DNA of 13,230 bases, from positions 1-13,230 of the forward strand of contig CAVWIG010000043.1 of assembly GCA_963754945.1 (NCBI GenBank), read 5' to 3'. Position 1 is the stretch's first letter. Every line of letters starts with the position of its first letter. A program made the position numbers and the translations under genes. The notes below the pieces were generated by a model. The model was not told the DNA's origin and ran no database searches. It saw only the letters and a list, made by a program, of their open reading frames with translations. Origin of the DNA: Methanotrichaceae archaeon (GTDB lineage Archaea > Halobacteriota > Methanosarcinia > Methanotrichales > Methanotrichaceae). Shown here piece after piece: positions 730 to 13,205 of this stretch.

Positions 730-1032
730 ATGGCGCACATATCCGTTGATAAAGAGAGCATCGCAGCCTTTTGCCGGAAACATCATATCCGGCGACTGGC
801 GCTTTTCGGGTCCGTGCTAAGAGAGGATTTCACCCCAGATAGCGATATCGACGTACTGGCAGATTTCGAGCCCGGACATTTTCCTGGACTTTTCGGTATT
901 TCTCGAATGGAGCGGGAGCTGTCCATCATCTTCGAAGGTCGCAGGATTGATCTGCGGACCGCTGAGGATCTGAGCCGCTATTTCCGCGATGATGTGTTGA
1001 AAGAGGCAGAGGTTCAGTATGCACAAGGATGA
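730..1032 (+). CDS. Minimal nucleotidyltransferase (MNT) antitoxin, MntA-like
   Basis: GSx10DxD motif ([18 protein letters not shown]), ~100 aa, overlaps the downstream HEPN gene. ATG at 730 preferred over the TTG at 703. Confidence 0.9.
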
Positions 1033-1354
1033 CCAAGTCCGCCTGCGACATATGCTCGATGCTGCGCATGAGGCGATGGCGTTCACCAAGAGTCGTACCC
1101 GTACAAGCCTGGATATAGATAGGATGCTTGTGCTGTCGCTGGTGAAAGAGATTGAGATCATCGGCGAGGCAGCTAACCAGGTATCAGAAACAACCAGAGA
1201 GCTAACGTCTACAATTCCGTGGGTGGATATCATCTCCATGCGAAACCGTCTGGTCCACGCCTATTTTGACATCAACCTGGAAATTCTCTGGAAAACTGTG
1301 CAAGACGATCTACCGCCACTGATTGTGGCTCTTGAAGATGTGCTGGAAAGATAA
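1019..1354 (+). CDS. HEPN/DUF86 ribonuclease toxin, HepT-like
   Basis: Rx4HxY motif (RNRLVHAY), EIIGEA and IPW motifs typical of DUF86; 111 aa; 14-nt overlap with the MNT gene. Confidence 0.9.
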
Positions 1355-2821: not shown

Positions 2822-4717
2822 TCAACCCTCGATGAACCTCATGCGCATCTCGTAGACTCCTTCCTCGCGTCTCTTTTCTATTTCGAACCCCATCTTCTCG
2901 AAGAGGCGGAGCATCGCCTTGTTCTCCACCAGAACCTCGGCCGTGAAACCAAGCAGGCCCTGCTTCCTGGCCAGGTATGTTAGATAGGATAGCAGTTCAG
3001 AGCCCACCCCTTGGTTCTGGCACTGGTCCTTTACCACCAAGGCTGCCTCTGCAGTGTGAATGTCCCTGTTCAGCTCGTACTGGCCAAGGCCGATTATAGT
3101 CTCCTTTTCCTTCCCTTGAATGACCGCTAATATCTCCATCTTCTTGGTGTAGTCCACAGCGACGAAATCCTGGAGCCTCTTGTGGGGCATGTCCTTTCTT
3201 TGAGAGAAGAAACGCAGGTACATGCTGTCCCCAGAAAGAGCGTAGAAGAAGTCCTTCAGCATCTGTTCGTCTGTGATTTTCACCGGCCGGAGAAGGAGGT
3301 CAAGACCTTGCTTTGTTGTCCTGTAGGTCTCCAGCTCCTCAGGGTACACTCCCTTCTCGCCGGGAACAAACGCCTGATCCTTGTAGACCAGAGTTCGTTT
3401 TTTGGCCTCCTCCAGCAGCCAGGGCCTGAACATGGGGTGGGCAATGGATATCAGGTCCATGGCCCTCTCCCGGATGTTCTTGCCGTGCAGGTAGGCTATA
3501 CCGTACTCAGTGACCACGTAGTGCACATCTCCCCTCGTGAGGGTCACTCCTGCTCCCTCCTGCAGGACGGGGACTATCCTCGATACTGTATCGTTCAGGG
3601 CAGTTGAGGGCAGGGCCAGAATTGTCCTGCCGCCAGGTGCCAGCACGGCACCGCGCATGAAGTCTGCCTGGCCTCCAATGCCGCTGTAGAAAGTCCCCCC
3701 CAACGACTCGGCAGTGGCCTGGCCTGTCAGGTCTATCTCCATGGCGCTATTAATGGCGGTCATCAGGTGGTTTCGGGCGATGATCAGGGGGTTGTTGGTG
3801 TAATCGATCCTCTTGAACTCCACAGTCGGATTCTCATCGAGAAAATCGTAGGTTTCTTTGCTGCCCATGCAGAAAGAAGCTATGGTCTTGCCCGGATTGT
3901 GGCTCTTCTTTGAGTTGTTGACCACACCCGTCCTCATGAGGTTCACTATGCCGTCGCTCAAGAGCTCCGTGTGAACACCTAGGTTCTTTTTTCCGCCTAG
4001 GTTTGAAACAACAGCGTCGGGTATGATGCCGTATCCAACCTGGATGGTTGAGCCGTCTTCGATTATGCGGGCGACGTAGCTGCCTATTCTCTTGACTATG
4101 TCGCTAGGCGCTTCCACAGCGTACTCCAGCATCGGCTCATCATGTGGCAGCAGAAAGTCGATGTCTTCTATGTTTATGAACCCGTCACCGTGCGTCCTGG
4201 GCATGTTGGAGTTGACCTGAGCTATGACCAGGGTTGCCTTTTCCGTAGCAGCCTTGACGATGTCTATGCTAATCCCGAGGCTCACATAGCCGTGCTTGTC
4301 CGGCAATGAGGTCTGTACCAAGGCTACGTCTATCGGTATTATTTTCCTCCGGAACAGATCGGGAACTGCGGATAGAAAAATTGGGGTGTAGTCAGCAGCA
4401 CCACGGTTTACTGAGTTCCTGGTACTGTCGCCCACGAAAAAAGAGTCAAGGCGAAAGTTCTCCTGGAGCTTCTCATCAGTGTAAGGTGCAACGCCCAAAG
4501 TCCATACGTGGATCAGCTCGGTGTCGAAGAAGGCCTTTGGATTGCTTCTGACGTAGTTCACCAGAGCTTGAACGAGGTACTGGGGCTCACCGCAGCCGGT
4601 GCCTATGAATATCCGGTCGCCAGCGTGAATATGGTGAAACAGCTCCTCCTCTGATGTGAACTTCTCCGGCCATGCCGTTTTCATCCTCTCAAGGTTTCTC
4701 AAGCCCTCAGTGTCCAT
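2822..4717 (-). CDS. Acetyl-CoA hydrolase/family I CoA-transferase fused to a C-terminal GNAT acetyltransferase domain
   Basis: GCGEPQ, QVNSNMPRTHGD, HTELLSDG (catalytic Glu), SGIGGQADFMRGA and VVTEYGIAYL motifs. C-terminal GNAT with QNQGVG acetyl-CoA loop and NKAMLRLFEKMGF. Start set at ATG 4717 after a GAGGAG RBS (631 aa). Confidence 0.92.
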   Translation of the reverse strand: MDTEGLRNLERMKTAWPEKFTSEEELFHHIHAGDRIFIGTGCGEPQYLVQALVNYVRSNPKAFFDTELIHVWTLGVAPYTDEKLQENFRLDSFFVGDSTRNSVNRGAADYTPIFLSAVPDLFRRKIIPIDVALVQTSLPDKHGYVSLGISIDIVKAATEKATLVIAQVNSNMPRTHGDGFINIEDIDFLLPHDEPMLEYAVEAPSDIVKRIGSYVARIIEDGSTIQVGYGIIPDAVVSNLGGKKNLGVHTELLSDGIVNLMRTGVVNNSKKSHNPGKTIASFCMGSKETYDFLDENPTVEFKRIDYTNNPLIIARNHLMTAINSAMEIDLTGQATAESLGGTFYSGIGGQADFMRGAVLAPGGRTILALPSTALNDTVSRIVPVLQEGAGVTLTRGDVHYVVTEYGIAYLHGKNIRERAMDLISIAHPMFRPWLLEEAKKRTLVYKDQAFVPGEKGVYPEELETYRTTKQGLDLLLRPVKITDEQMLKDFFYALSGDSMYLRFFSQRKDMPHKRLQDFVAVDYTKKMEILAVIQGKEKETIIGLGQYELNRDIHTAEAALVVKDQCQNQGVGSELLSYLTYLARKQGLLGFTAEVLVENKAMLRLFEKMGFEIEKRREEGVYEMRMRFIEG

Positions 4718-4923
4718 CTCGTTTCTCCTCGCAGCGCACCCACTGTATATGTCATTCAAGTCAGTTCAACTGCACAATTGTATCGTTGATTTAGCTATCT
4801 TTAAGGATTATCTTCTAGGACTTCATCGTCTTTAACTCTATCTATATCGGCATCTTGTGAAAGGGAGAAGGACTTTGAACACGAGTGCATCAACCTGAAC
4901 TTCCTAGTTTCGAGGCTCAACAC

Positions 4924-5439: not shown

Positions 5440-5799
5440 ATGAGCACCATACTTTATGTGCAGACCAGCGGCGTAGACACGCCTGAGAGAACCTATGCCC
5501 CTTTCATCCTTGGTATGACCGCCAGGGCAATGGATGTCGAGGCAGAGATATTTTTCATGATCAAAGGCATAACCATCCTCAAGAAGGGCGAAGCAGAGAA
5601 GGTGAAGTTGGGAAGCTTCCCCAGCCTCAAGGAGGTCATCGACCAGGCAGTAACGGCTGGGGTCAAGCTGTACATCTGCGAGCAGAGCACCCAGCTTTTC
5701 GGCATGGCGAGGGGTGACTTCATCCCTGAGGCTAAGGTTGCAGGAGCGGGGACTCTGAACGACCTTGCCCTTGATGCTGACTCTGTTATAACCTTCTAG
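5440..5799 (+). CDS. DsrE/DsrF/TusD-family sulfur relay protein
   Basis: 119 aa; PERTYAPF, IFFMIKG, GVKLYICEQS (conserved Cys) and VAGAGT motifs typical of DsrE-like proteins; AGGTGA/GAGG RBS upstream. Confidence 0.85.
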   Translation: MSTILYVQTSGVDTPERTYAPFILGMTARAMDVEAEIFFMIKGITILKKGEAEKVKLGSFPSLKEVIDQAVTAGVKLYICEQSTQLFGMARGDFIPEAKVAGAGTLNDLALDADSVITF

Positions 5800-5855
5800 A
5801 GTGAATAACTCTAGAGAGATAAATAGGACTGAAAAGAATTTAGGCTGGAGAGCAA

Positions 5856-10254: not shown

Positions 10255-10332
10255 TGGTAGCGGGGAGTAGATTTGAACTACTGGTCTACGGGTTATGAGC
10301 CCGTCGGGATTTCCTGACTACCCCACCCCGCT
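10255..10332 (-). tRNA. Initiator tRNA-Met (CAT), intron-less, CCA encoded
   Basis: Reverse complement AGCGGGG TG GGGTAGTCAGGAAATCCC G ACGGG CTCATAA CCCGT AGACC AGTAG TTCAAAT CTACT CCCCGCT A CCA folds as a cloverleaf. A1-U72 and three consecutive G-C pairs in the anticodon stem are archaeal initiator hallmarks. TTATAAA box at ~10375-10369. Confidence 0.97.
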
Positions 10333-10541
10333 TCTCTGCACGCTGTATACCTATCCACCTTAATACTACTTTATAAGGCTTGCGTATCGTAGTTTGTACA
10401 ACAATCATGAGCAACGATATAAAGAGTGCTTTCCATGTGGAATTTGATTAAATGGCAGAACTCTGTCACTCTGTCACGTCGATGGAAAATTATAAATCAC
10501 TTCAAGTAGATTATGCCAGAGTACTGGATGGGGGATCAAAA

Positions 10542-11246
10542 ATGATGTACCTTTCAAATTACCGATTGGTCCTGCTGGCAATGGTCTTTATTTTGCTTGG
10601 CTCTTCGGCCATTGCTCAGGACAGTTCTGCACTCACGTTTGGATCGAAGGTTAAGCTTTCAGACTCGGATGAGTCCAAGGCACTTTGTCGGTTTTTCGTC
10701 GATCCCGAATTTGCATTTTATGATGCGAACATTAAAGGGATTTTCGATTCGGGAGATCCCGTTTACATACACATAAACCCGACAGAGCCTACGGTAAGCG
10801 AGAACGATGTTCGCCTTACTTCGTTTGGCAGCTTCCCACCCGGCAGTCAGGTTCGTTTAACCGACCCAGATGTCGGGTACCCATTATCCCAATTCGGAAG
10901 TAACGGATTTCCACGGGCTGAAGTCAGGTACTTCGATGTAGATGGTGACAAGGCATATAGCCTGAACGATCCTGTCTACCTTGACTTCAATCCTGGCACA
11001 GTGAGATCAGGAGATATCAGGCTGACCAACTATATGGGATATGAGGCAGGCACCAGAGTCCGTGATTCGGACTTAGACAGCGGAAAGCCAACAACTATAC
11101 TTCCTGGTATGCTCAATTTCTTCAACTCCAACGGAGATATAAACAACGGAGGGTATGCCATATACGATTCAGGTGATATAATTTATATGGACACCCAGGC
11201 ACCATTCCTTACCGTAACAATCAACGACATCAGGTTGTCGAGTTGA
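10542..11246 (+). CDS. Secreted three-repeat protein (probable sheath/cell-envelope protein, paralog 1)
   Basis: Start at ATG 10542 (GGGGGA upstream) gives a signal peptide (..RLVLLAMVFILLGSSAIA|Q). Three repeats G[ST]xVxx[ST]DxD...DpVY...[NG]D[VI]RL, shared with the two downstream genes. Confidence 0.85.
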   Translation: MMYLSNYRLVLLAMVFILLGSSAIAQDSSALTFGSKVKLSDSDESKALCRFFVDPEFAFYDANIKGIFDSGDPVYIHINPTEPTVSENDVRLTSFGSFPPGSQVRLTDPDVGYPLSQFGSNGFPRAEVRYFDVDGDKAYSLNDPVYLDFNPGTVRSGDIRLTNYMGYEAGTRVRDSDLDSGKPTTILPGMLNFFNSNGDINNGGYAIYDSGDIIYMDTQAPFLTVTINDIRLSS

Positions 11247-11274
11247 TTCAGATATTTTGTTCTGCTGAATTCAA

Positions 11275-11321
11275 AGCAAGAGCCAACGCGAATACGCGCT
11301 GGCTTGCTGATTTTTTTCTTT
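11275..11321 (+). terminator. Hairpin plus T-tract after paralog 1
   Basis: AGCA..AGCCA-a-CGCG-aata-CGCG-c-TGGCT-TGCT stem (11275-11308) followed by TTTTTTTCTTT. Confidence 0.65.
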
Positions 11322-11443
11322 GAAATTTTGTCCACCGAAGCTCAGCATCTCTTCAGTCAGATCTGCCCTGAAATTATTCTCAGTATTATCTTTTATTCAT
11401 AATTCGAATGTCCTCGCTTTTTCTTGAATCTTCTAAACTACCA

Positions 11444-11480
11444 AAAAATACTTATATTAATACAATAAAGAGGGATATGC
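11444..11480 (+). promoter_or_regulatory. Archaeal promoter (A-rich BRE, TTATAT TATA box, ATGC initiator element)
   Basis: aaaaatacTTATATtaa (TATA 11452-11457) with ATGC at 11477-11480, at methanogen-type spacing; predicted TSS ~G11479. Confidence 0.55.
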
Positions 11481-11704
11481 TGTAAGAGAAGCCCTAGCCA
11501 TAGTTTGGCTAGAGCTAAGGGGCTGCTGATTTGTTTGGCCATATAAAATATCGGGGGGGGTAATAAATTAGGTAGACCGTAGGCGCGTCTATCGAGTCAA
11601 ATATGGCGAATTGAGATGCCGCAGGATCGATGTGGCGTTAGAATCTCTTTGGTTCTGACAATCAATGACGCGTATTGACTGCAGATTAGTTTCTGAGCAT
11701 ATTT
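11473..11704 (+). ncRNA. Putative structured 5' leader / cis-regulatory RNA (no family recognised)
   Basis: Eight mutually compatible nested helices found by eye, many with G-U pairs that work only on the + strand (see findings). Confidence 0.65.
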
Positions 11705-11741
11705 GATGAAATATTACTAGGATTAAATCGGAGGAGGTGTT

Positions 11742-12443
11742 ATGTTGAAAAAGTCAATAAGGGCTTGTATTGTGCTTGCAAGCTTGGTTATGCTAATAGG
11801 AACGAGCCTAGCTACGTCGTACGAGTTTGGCTCGAAGGTACGGGCTGGAGACACGGATGTCAACGATGCGCTTATTCCCAATGGAGGTCTGGTCGTAGGT
11901 TTCATGGATCTACCGCCACTAAACGCATTAGTCCCTGATCCGAATGATGTGGCTTACCTACATCAAGGCGCTCTTCCTGGGGCCATTTTACCAGGTGACG
12001 TCAGGCTTTCGTCGTTTGCAGGTTTCCCCGCTGGGACCAGAGTAATGACAACCGACCCTGATGCCGGACGCCCGATAAACGCATTTCCAATAACAGCTAA
12101 TTGGGCATACTCAGCACTGTTTGATGGAGTGCCACCACAACCTTGTGATATCGAAGATCCCGTATATTGGGCAATTAAAGCAGCATCAGGAGCACATTCA
12201 GTTGCTGATTTGAGGTTGTCAAAAATTCAGAACCTTAATCCCGGAACTTGGGTGAAAGATAGCGATGTCGACTTCAATAATCCCATACAACTCTTGAATA
12301 ACGCTTCACCAATGATCCGTGATCTCAACGGTAACGGGCAGTATGATGACTCGGATTCAGTGTACCTGAAAATAAATAATGCATCACCCACTGAAGTGCA
12401 ACCAGGAGATCTGCGCCTCATAGCAATTAGTGGCCATAGCTAG
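11742..12443 (+). CDS. Secreted three-repeat protein (probable sheath/cell-envelope protein, paralog 2)
   Basis: Strong GGAGGAGGTG RBS; signal peptide MLKKSIRACIVLASLVMLIGTSLA; repeats YEFGSKVRAGDTD / AGTRVMTTDPD / PGTWVKDSDVD, each closed by D[VL]RL. Confidence 0.9.
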   Translation: MLKKSIRACIVLASLVMLIGTSLATSYEFGSKVRAGDTDVNDALIPNGGLVVGFMDLPPLNALVPDPNDVAYLHQGALPGAILPGDVRLSSFAGFPAGTRVMTTDPDAGRPINAFPITANWAYSALFDGVPPQPCDIEDPVYWAIKAASGAHSVADLRLSKIQNLNPGTWVKDSDVDFNNPIQLLNNASPMIRDLNGNGQYDDSDSVYLKINNASPTEVQPGDLRLIAISGHS

Positions 12444-12461
12444 GTATGGAGGTACAACAAA

Positions 12462-13205
12462 ATGAAAGATCTGATTAAAGCTTGCGTATTGTGCGCAAGT
12501 TTGATACTGATGTTCAGTATCGGCAATGCTGCAGCATATGATTTTGGCTCGAAAGTCATATCTGGAGACGCCGATGAAGGGAAGATCCTTGAAAGCTTCC
12601 AGGCTGCTGGACTTACTCCAACCGTTGCCTTTCTGAGCTTGTCAAACCCGACCACGTTCGACGCAAACTCAGTTGTCTACATAAATTTCGCCGGCAACAT
12701 GAGGGTCAACGTCGGCGACCTGAGGCTCACCAATTACAGCAATCTGTATGCCGCTGGTACAAAGGTTAAGAGCGGCGATCTGGACTTCGGGACCGGACCA
12801 CTTACGCCTTTCGCTAACCCAGCCGGGCAGATATACTTCGGACCTCGATTCTCCGCTCCGGACTATGTCTTAGACGATTCAGTATACCTCAAGACATCGC
12901 CTCTGCCCCTCGTAACAGGCCTCAATGACGTAAGGCTGAGCAGCCCAGTAGGCGCCATTCAGGCTGGCTCCAAGGTCAGCGACAACGATGGTGACTGGAA
13001 CACGCCCTTGACGCTGATGACAAGTGCGGCAGCAGGCGTGGTCAACCTTGGACCAGTAGCTGAGCTGAGGTTCTACAACATAGACGGCGATGTCAATGCC
13101 CTGGGGGCACCTGTCTACGGCTCGGAGGACCCGGTCTATCTGGATGTTTCCTTCCCAGGATTCGCAACCTATGGAATAGTGTCGCCCAACGACGTTCGAC
13201 TCTAG
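12462..13205 (+). CDS. Secreted three-repeat protein (probable sheath/cell-envelope protein, paralog 3)
   Basis: GGAGGT RBS; signal peptide MKDLIKACVLCASLILMFSIGNAAA; repeats YDFGSKVISGDAD / AGTKVKSGDLD / AGSKVSDNDGD; ends NDVRL. Confidence 0.9.
   Translation: MKDLIKACVLCASLILMFSIGNAAAYDFGSKVISGDADEGKILESFQAAGLTPTVAFLSLSNPTTFDANSVVYINFAGNMRVNVGDLRLTNYSNLYAAGTKVKSGDLDFGTGPLTPFANPAGQIYFGPRFSAPDYVLDDSVYLKTSPLPLVTGLNDVRLSSPVGAIQAGSKVSDNDGDWNTPLTLMTSAAAGVVNLGPVAELRFYNIDGDVNALGAPVYGSEDPVYLDVSFPGFATYGIVSPNDVRL

Follow-up and report, generated by a model that had tools for sequence, protein, structure and literature searches.

The 5′ hairpin of Escherichia coli ompA is a stem-loop that stabilises its mRNA. 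In Lactobacillus, a stem-loop in the 5′ untranslated region (UTR) of slpA stabilises the S-layer mRNA and prolongs its half-life (PMC10221546). For the methanogen Methanolobus psychrophilus, two reports state that 24% of mRNAs have a 5′ UTR longer than 150 nt (Li et al. 2015, PMC5378194) and that processing of long 5′ UTRs stabilises mRNAs, with most Methanolobus UTR processing sites lying 20–30 nt before the start codon (Qi et al. 2017, PMC5499594). Here we analysed a 13,230-nt stretch of a Methanotrichaceae genome (GCA_963754945.1, contig CAVWIG010000043.1; the whole stretch is called the window) and within it the leader of a pair of envelope-protein genes, for which an initial annotation had proposed a ~230-nt nested multi-stem RNA at 11473–11704.

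We assign a probability of about 0.55 to the reading that this region is a lineage-specific ~260-nt 5′ UTR of an envelope-protein operon, which is processed, sets mRNA stability and carries two conserved hairpins. The leader is fairly ordinary, being neither one folded domain nor a new RNA class. A promoter at 11443–11459, made up of a B-recognition element (BRE) and a TATA box, would drive a two-gene operon of secreted repeat proteins from a multi-copy Methanotrichaceae envelope family. The leader would probably be cut at 11544/45, in an AU-rich single-stranded stretch, and hairpin protection together with removal of the bulk of the leader by processing would determine how long a very abundant mRNA lasts. 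Ligand sensing or a gated ribosome-binding site (RBS) is less likely than such a setting of mRNA lifetime. In peat, much methane is made from acetate by Methanotrichaceae, which are major producers there; the host belongs to an uncultured peat genus. A clade-specific leader with its promoter, two hairpins and candidate in situ processing site would improve the annotation of these metagenome-assembled genomes; the promoter and 5′ hairpin are candidate expression parts, and the locus would extend, with a case from the environment, the so far short list of processed archaeal 5′ UTRs.

The operon and its transcribed leader

The leader and the operon comprise the following features:

11443–11459 (+): archaeal promoter core, consisting of an A-rich BRE-like run, TAC and the TATA box TTATATTA (11452–11459)
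11482–11741 (+): probable 5′ UTR of the P0001–P0002 operon, ~260 nt, with a predicted start
11544–11545 (+): RNA 5′ end in AU-rich CAUAUAAAAUAU, a processing site or secondary start
11730–11739 (+): RBS GGAGGAGGTG, 2 nt before the ATG at 11742 and conserved in all four sequences compared
11742–12443 (+): P0001, secreted 233-aa repeat protein, first of the pair, covered by RNA contigs
12462–13205 (+): P0002, secreted repeat protein of 247 aa, a paralogue of P0001 and 18 nt downstream of it

We placed peat metatranscriptome contigs, 88–99% alike, from four runs of four studies (X1, X2, X3 and X5) on positions 10900–12700. Word shares were low in these runs (0.04–0.18), and contig depths were not used for ranking expression. 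Genes downstream of the leader were covered by contigs in all four runs. Contigs of X2 (11512–11793), X3 (11544–12234) and X5 (11544–11791) join at least 198–230 nt of leader to the coding sequence, counted from 11544 and 11512, respectively, which makes the 5′ UTR longer than ~150 nt. All nine adapter-bearing contig ends share one orientation, which, from TruSeq adapters and dUTP libraries, we take to be that of + strand RNA. The expectation of a + strand leader continuous with the first envelope gene is thus borne out by contigs that span both and by the nine concordant ends. Across 11219–11511 no contig was found in any of the four runs, with both flanks covered in the same runs. A silent spacer between covered flanks argues that the cover reflects RNA and not DNA carry-over. 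A further X5 contig (11763–12493) crosses the junction between P0001 and P0002, and the two genes are probably co-transcribed.

The X3 and X5 contigs that begin at 11544/45 have Illumina adapter directly in front, so that the same 5′ end occurs in two of the four runs; its position is ambiguous by 1 nt, since the last T of the adapter coincides with T11544. An abundant RNA species therefore starts within the structure initially proposed. Cover in X1 begins in the 11571–11631 bin.

Besides these, X3 yielded a low-depth contig (depth 9.4) with adapters at both ends, running from 11582 to 11706/07, a discrete fragment of ~125 nt. Its 11706/07 end lies 35 nt before the start codon and could mark a second processing site.

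In archaeal promoters, transcription starts ~26 nt past the centre of the TATA box. Counting from the centre of the conserved TATA box, we infer a transcription start site (TSS) near 11482. The initial annotation placed it at ~11479; a start near 11482 would leave the 5′ arm of its proposed closing helix (11473–11481) outside the RNA, and one at ~11479 would leave most of that arm outside. A literature search on Methanothrix found no TSS map for Methanotrichaceae. Among 28 homologous genes of other genera, 9 also follow the promoter core AAAAAA[G]TACTTATA (loci L012, L022, L024, L025, L027, L029, L030, L031 and L033). From the start of the core to the start codon the distance is 55–66 nt at eight loci of one genus and 127 nt at one locus of another, compared with 298 nt in the window. 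As the same core sits far nearer the start codon elsewhere, the long leader is an extra segment, specific to this lineage, that separates the RBS from a promoter common to several genera.

We also observed the near-identical core before homologous envelope genes in at least three Methanotrichaceae genera, and it looks like a family-wide strong promoter.

Two further features lie upstream:

10452–11246 (+): P0003, upstream paralogue of P0001 and P0002
11311–11330 (+): T-rich tract downstream of P0003 (a T7 run, then TTTGAAATTTTG), a possible archaeal oligo-T terminator

P0001, P0002 and P0003 each have a signal-peptide-like N-terminus followed by repeats of ~70 aa, about three per protein, with D[VIL]RL at their ends. 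None of them matched a Pfam or NCBIfam family or a PDB sequence. Homologues of P0001 occur, often in tandem, in 72 of 101 Methanotrichaceae genomes. The AlphaFold (AF2) model of P0001 has a pLDDT (predicted local distance difference test score) of 85.5; it found no fold match at E ≤ 0.001 in PDB or BFVD, and Atlas matches scored below 0.9. Methanothrix has many sheath (SH) protein genes, two adjacent ones being the most transcribed SH genes (PMC11576556). Given their taxon, their signal peptides, the number of copies and their arrangement as a gene pair, P0001 and P0002 may be SH-type sheath proteins.

Folding and conservation of the leader

All nine helices of the initial annotation were found where it had placed them, with 65 of 65 positions pairing (12 of them G-U), as was the G8 run at 11553–11560. 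The 232-nt stretch 11473–11704 has a minimum free energy (MFE) of −78.5 kcal/mol and a z of −3.60, and none of 200 dinucleotide shuffles folded as well (mean shuffle MFE, −63.1 kcal/mol). In a scan of both strands with 18 shuffles each, 1 of 114 other 232-nt windows reached z ≤ −3.6 (mean −0.38, s.d. 1.10), which makes the stretch a folding outlier within the window. This excess is real and fragile, as it rests on the closing helix. Starting from the predicted TSS, and hence without the 5′ arm of that helix, the leader (11482–11741) gives z −2.46, and from 11544 it gives −1.63. The minus strand of the 232-nt stretch (z −4.62) stands out more strongly against its own shuffles than the plus strand does. 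The nested structure as drawn evaluates to −59.6 kcal/mol, not below the average shuffle MFE.

We compared four sequences, aligned as A3: the window, the closest genome (G001, same genus), and two almost identical contigs from a metagenome scan, L045 and L046, in which the P0001 orthologue is 84% identical and gene order is the same. They amount to three independent lineages. The energy excess seen in the window is absent from its relatives: equivalents of 11482–11741 gave z −1.43 (G001) and −0.78 (L045), so that orthologous leaders fold no better than shuffles, and for 11544–11706 the values were +0.23 and −0.16.

Three hairpins of the leader are referred to below:

11490–11516 (+): hairpin 1, the conserved stem-loop closest to the 5′ end, with core CTAGCCA/TGGCTAG (11494–11512) and an AGC/GCT extension
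11615–11639 (+): hairpin 3, GAUGCCGCA / UGUGGCGUU, G-U-rich and internal, with loop GGAUCGA invariant in four sequences
11640–11656 (+): hairpin 4, strong in the window only (z −5.3, compared with −1.8 in G001 and +0.2 in L045)

By sequence comparison, only the hairpins at 11494–11512 and 11615–11639 are kept across the three lineages found. For hairpin 1, folding energies over the three lineages run from −14.3 to −20.0 kcal/mol and z from −3.9 to −5.3. It pairs in 28 of 28 cells; two pairs vary, with G-U in place of A-U, and these stay paired only when read as + strand, and C11493T in G001 gives it one extra pair. Hairpin 3 (−7.5 to −12.5 kcal/mol) pairs in 35 of 36 cells, with one compensatory change from G-C to A-U and two one-sided changes. 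Read as − strand, it would pair in 23 of 36. These two elements are conserved as features at the RNA level.

The initial annotation had taken G-U pairs on the + strand as a signature of such selection. For the window alone this argument is circular, because the helices were chosen while allowing + strand G-U, whereas in comparison it holds for hairpin 3 (35/36 against 23/36).

As a whole, the ~230-nt architecture was not supported. L045 and L046 both carry a deletion of the closing helix's 5′ arm (11473–11480), and for GCCATAT/ATATGGC the share of paired cells is 60.7%. The long-range 10-bp helix pairs in 84%, with three pairs broken in L045/L046 and one compensatory pair. Hairpin 5, the fifth in the order of the initial annotation, is lost in L045, where hairpins 2 and 4 are weak (z −0.6 and +0.2); the alifold consensus retains a 4-bp core of hairpin 4 in the relatives. 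For the whole structure, the covariation score was 0.141, compared with 0.132 for column shuffles, and 122 of 500 shuffles scored as high; two pairs had double changes, a count reached by 340 of 500 shuffles. Substitutions relative to G001 fall at similar density on paired (14/130) and unpaired (13/102) positions, and 11 of the 14 at paired positions break the pair. The G8 run is replaced by AGGAGGGG in G001 and GGTGTTGG in L045, and the pseudoknot suggested between it and the UCUUU loop is left unsupported, as both partners change in relatives. Three of the outcomes that the initial annotation had named as speaking against it were thus encountered in part, namely an RNA 5′ end inside the structure (11544/45), a fold that is mostly unconserved, and relatives without an energy excess. 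Invariant blocks in the leader include UAAUAAAUUAGG at 11561–11572 and the loop of hairpin 3.

Three candidate elements were considered and rejected. When the G-run is paired instead with GCUGCUGA, alifold shows two double changes, but the local hairpin is shuffle-like (z +0.6 to −1.0). The C/D-box-like UGAUGA at 11704–11709 is lost in G001. An upstream open reading frame (ORF) of 20 codons (11616–11678) is kept in G001, and its ATG reads ATA in L045/L046. No ORF in the leader was conserved in frame and place across the compared sequences.

In G001 the promoter stretch 11380–11472 is 96.8% identical and the leader element 89.1%; third codon positions are 92.3% identical in P0001, 94.3% in P0003 and 74.6% in P0002. 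In L045 the promoter (11431–11472) is 90.5% identical, the leader 76.8% and the spacer 11247–11430 50%, with values for third codon positions given as 81.6% (P0001), 69.8% and 56.1%. The leader is under some constraint, since 76.8% compares with 50% in the untranscribed spacer.

Among 61 relatives and 105 family genomes, blastn found the leader only in the genome of the window itself (G000) and in G001, single-copy in each, plus short chance matches. A covariance model of the whole leader (R1) run over the 105 genomes gave the two true matches and four weak ones (E 0.0014–0.095), none of which has a P0001, P0002 or P0003 homologue within its ~3-kb locus. The hairpin 3 model (R2) matched once each in G000 and G001, with no second copy, and gave nothing in G002. 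nhmmer with the four-sequence leader alignment found no match in 28 homologue loci of other genera. In a third species of the genus, neither the leader nor, with the query used, the orthologous gene was found. As judged by these searches, the long leader is confined to one genus-level clade.

At Rfam 15 gathering thresholds, the only match in the whole window was a tRNA at 10258–10332 (−), with 61.5 bits. A permissive scan of 11300–11800 returned two chance-level matches (E 4.9 and 6) and no family at E < 1; the best was Spot 42 on the opposite strand, which scored 14.2 bits where gathering requires 80. The statement that no known RNA family matches the leader agrees with both scans. None of three leaders contains a CCTCC-type anti-RBS motif. 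In the window, predicted RBS accessibility was 0.36/0.46/0.46 for the full leader and for starts at 11545 and 11708; the corresponding values were 0.53/0.64/0.47 for G001 and 0.57/0.58/0.30 for L045, so truncation does not consistently raise it. RBS gating of translation is therefore unlikely, given that there is no anti-RBS motif and that predicted accessibility barely shifts on truncation.

The tRNA gene at 10258–10332 (−) lies divergently upstream of P0003.

Alternative readings of the leader

Several observations weigh against a processed, stability-setting leader. It is conserved no more than third codon positions of the adjacent P0001 and P0003 (89.1% compared with 92.3% and 94.3% in G001; 76.8% compared with 81.6% for P0001 in L045), and with just three independent lineages the covariation test has low power. 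One cell of hairpin 3 is broken in G001 by an A-C mismatch. The TSS is a predicted one, and no RNA contig covers 11473–11511, so that hairpin 1 is not seen in any RNA; the contig gap over 11219–11511 is itself a hint that proves neither presence nor absence of RNA. X3 and X5 come from the same year and the same habitat and may be one campaign, and their common end at 11544/45 may reflect secondary initiation or a halt of reverse transcriptase. Since the promoter core lies 55–66 or 127 nt before the start codon elsewhere, a long leader is not needed for expression of the envelope family.

The main rival explanation is that the leader is tolerated filler, a functionless lineage-specific insertion or expansion between promoter and RBS whose hairpins persist only because the lineages are young. 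We consider this unlikely. Its basis is the restriction of the leader to 2 of 105 family genomes by blastn and covariance model, its absence from a third species of the genus (which, with the query used, also lacks the orthologous gene), conservation not above synonymous sites, similar substitution density at paired and unpaired positions (14/130 and 13/102 relative to G001), and homologues in which the same promoter core is much nearer the start codon. Filler does not sit well with 76.8% identity next to an untranscribed spacer at 50%, nor with hairpins 1 and 3, in which nearly all changes preserve pairing on the + strand (63 of 64 cells, including one compensatory pair). A 5′-UTR-derived small RNA, in which cleavage at 11544/45 and close to 11707 sets free a stable, trans-acting RNA of ~160 nt and leaves an mRNA with a 35-nt leader, strikes us as quite improbable. 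The 5′ ends at 11544/45 in two runs and the adapter-bounded X3 contig of depth 9.4 (11582 to 11706/07) fit it, as does the position of most Methanolobus processing, 20–30 nt before the start codon (PMC5499594). However, the 3′ end is known from that one low-depth contig, contigs of X2, X3 and X5 pass through 11707 into the coding sequence, and 11544–11706 folds like shuffles in G001 (z +0.23) and L045 (z −0.16). A dual-purpose leader is a distinctly long shot. Here, cuts at 11544/45 and ~11707 would free a ~160-nt RNA carrying the hairpin at 11615–11639, which would act in trans or bind a protein coupling envelope synthesis to growth, and a short-leader mRNA would be left.

The 5′ ends at 11544/45 also bear on a second, internal promoter, with ATATAAAATAT at 11541–11551 as TATA box and a shorter mRNA from ~11570–11582, the upstream part being a separate short transcript or read-through. 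These ends fall within the putative box, the X2 contig reads through from 11512, there is no A-rich BRE in front, and the box is weakened to TATACAAAAT in G001. We therefore hold such a promoter to be very doubtful, even though the AT-rich box is largely kept in the four sequences, an X3 contig starts at 11582 with adapter, X1 cover begins in the 11571–11631 bin, and 14% of genes of a related methanogen have multiple TSSs (PMC5378194). A riboswitch-like element sensing a ligand, ion or temperature and controlling the envelope operon, the 'sensor' option of the initial annotation, would account for a long leader with invariant blocks (UAAUAAAUUAGG at 11561–11572 and the hairpin 3 loop) that no known family explains. 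We rate it as highly improbable, as there is no conserved multi-helix core, orthologues show no excess folding energy, the G8 run is unconserved, no expression platform is apparent (no anti-RBS motif, and predicted RBS accessibility unchanged), and the leader occurs in one genus-level clade only. Scarcely credible in our judgement is an element acting at the DNA level, either a miniature inverted-repeat transposable element (MITE) whose terminal inverted repeats would be GGATATGCT/AGCATATTT or, at 11494–11512, a palindromic operator. Both strands do fold better than shuffles, 9-bp inverted repeats flank the stretch, and in the window the 7 bp of hairpin 1 form a perfect palindrome around a spacer of 5 nt. 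Yet the stretch is single-copy in G000 and G001, the left repeat is deleted in L045/L046 with the remainder staying in place, and palindrome changes in G001 and L045 break DNA symmetry while retaining + strand G-U pairing.

Elsewhere in the window, 5569–5800 (+) is the second-strongest folding outlier (z −4.3 with 18 shuffles, −3.13 with 200). It lies within the 3′ part of an ORF at 5440–5799 (+), just upstream of genes for class-V aminotransferase (cysteine desulfurase-like) and NifU-like proteins. The gene at 1019–1354 (+), whose product has a HepT-like ribonuclease domain (Pfam E 1.9e-22), overlaps a small ORF in front of it (703–1032, +), and the layout of the two resembles a HepT/MntA-type toxin-antitoxin pair, for which they are a candidate by layout. 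In the 645-aa protein encoded at 2822–4759 (−), the N- and C-terminal domains of acetyl-CoA hydrolase/transferase are fused to a GNAT acetyltransferase domain, which lies at the C-terminus.

Comparison with known systems

Rfam riboswitches and curated leaders share with this locus the 5′ leader position and a nominal multi-stem fold, but the leader has no conserved core and no expression platform. An aptamer core that is conserved and covaries across taxa was not found, with the leader in 2 of 105 genomes and 122 of 500 shuffles scoring as high. Nor were there multiple copies with conserved terminal inverted repeats, as in a MITE.

The reading of the region as a processed 5′ UTR finds its nearest parallel in the long, processed 5′ UTRs of housekeeping mRNAs in Methanolobus psychrophilus R15 (PMC5378194, PMC5499594). 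The two share a broad methanogen group, a leader longer than 150 nt and predicted structure, and the internal RNA 5′ end of our locus, a candidate processing site, lies in an AU-rich stretch before a highly used operon. In contrast to the usual 20–30 nt, the site here is ~197 nt before the start codon, and since no RBS masking is predicted, the 'unmasking' half of the Methanolobus scheme does not apply.

Hairpin protection would correspond to stabilisers of the slpA/ompA type. These differ in that our host is an archaeon with other decay enzymes, and hairpin 1 starts ~8–12 nt after the predicted TSS, in a region without RNA contig cover. With the Lactobacillus slpA S-layer stabiliser (PMC10221546), the locus has in common that a strong promoter serves a very abundant envelope mRNA and that a conserved, stable hairpin lies near the 5′ end, here a predicted one. 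The evolutionarily maintained pairing expected of this type is found in hairpin 1, which pairs in all 28 cells.

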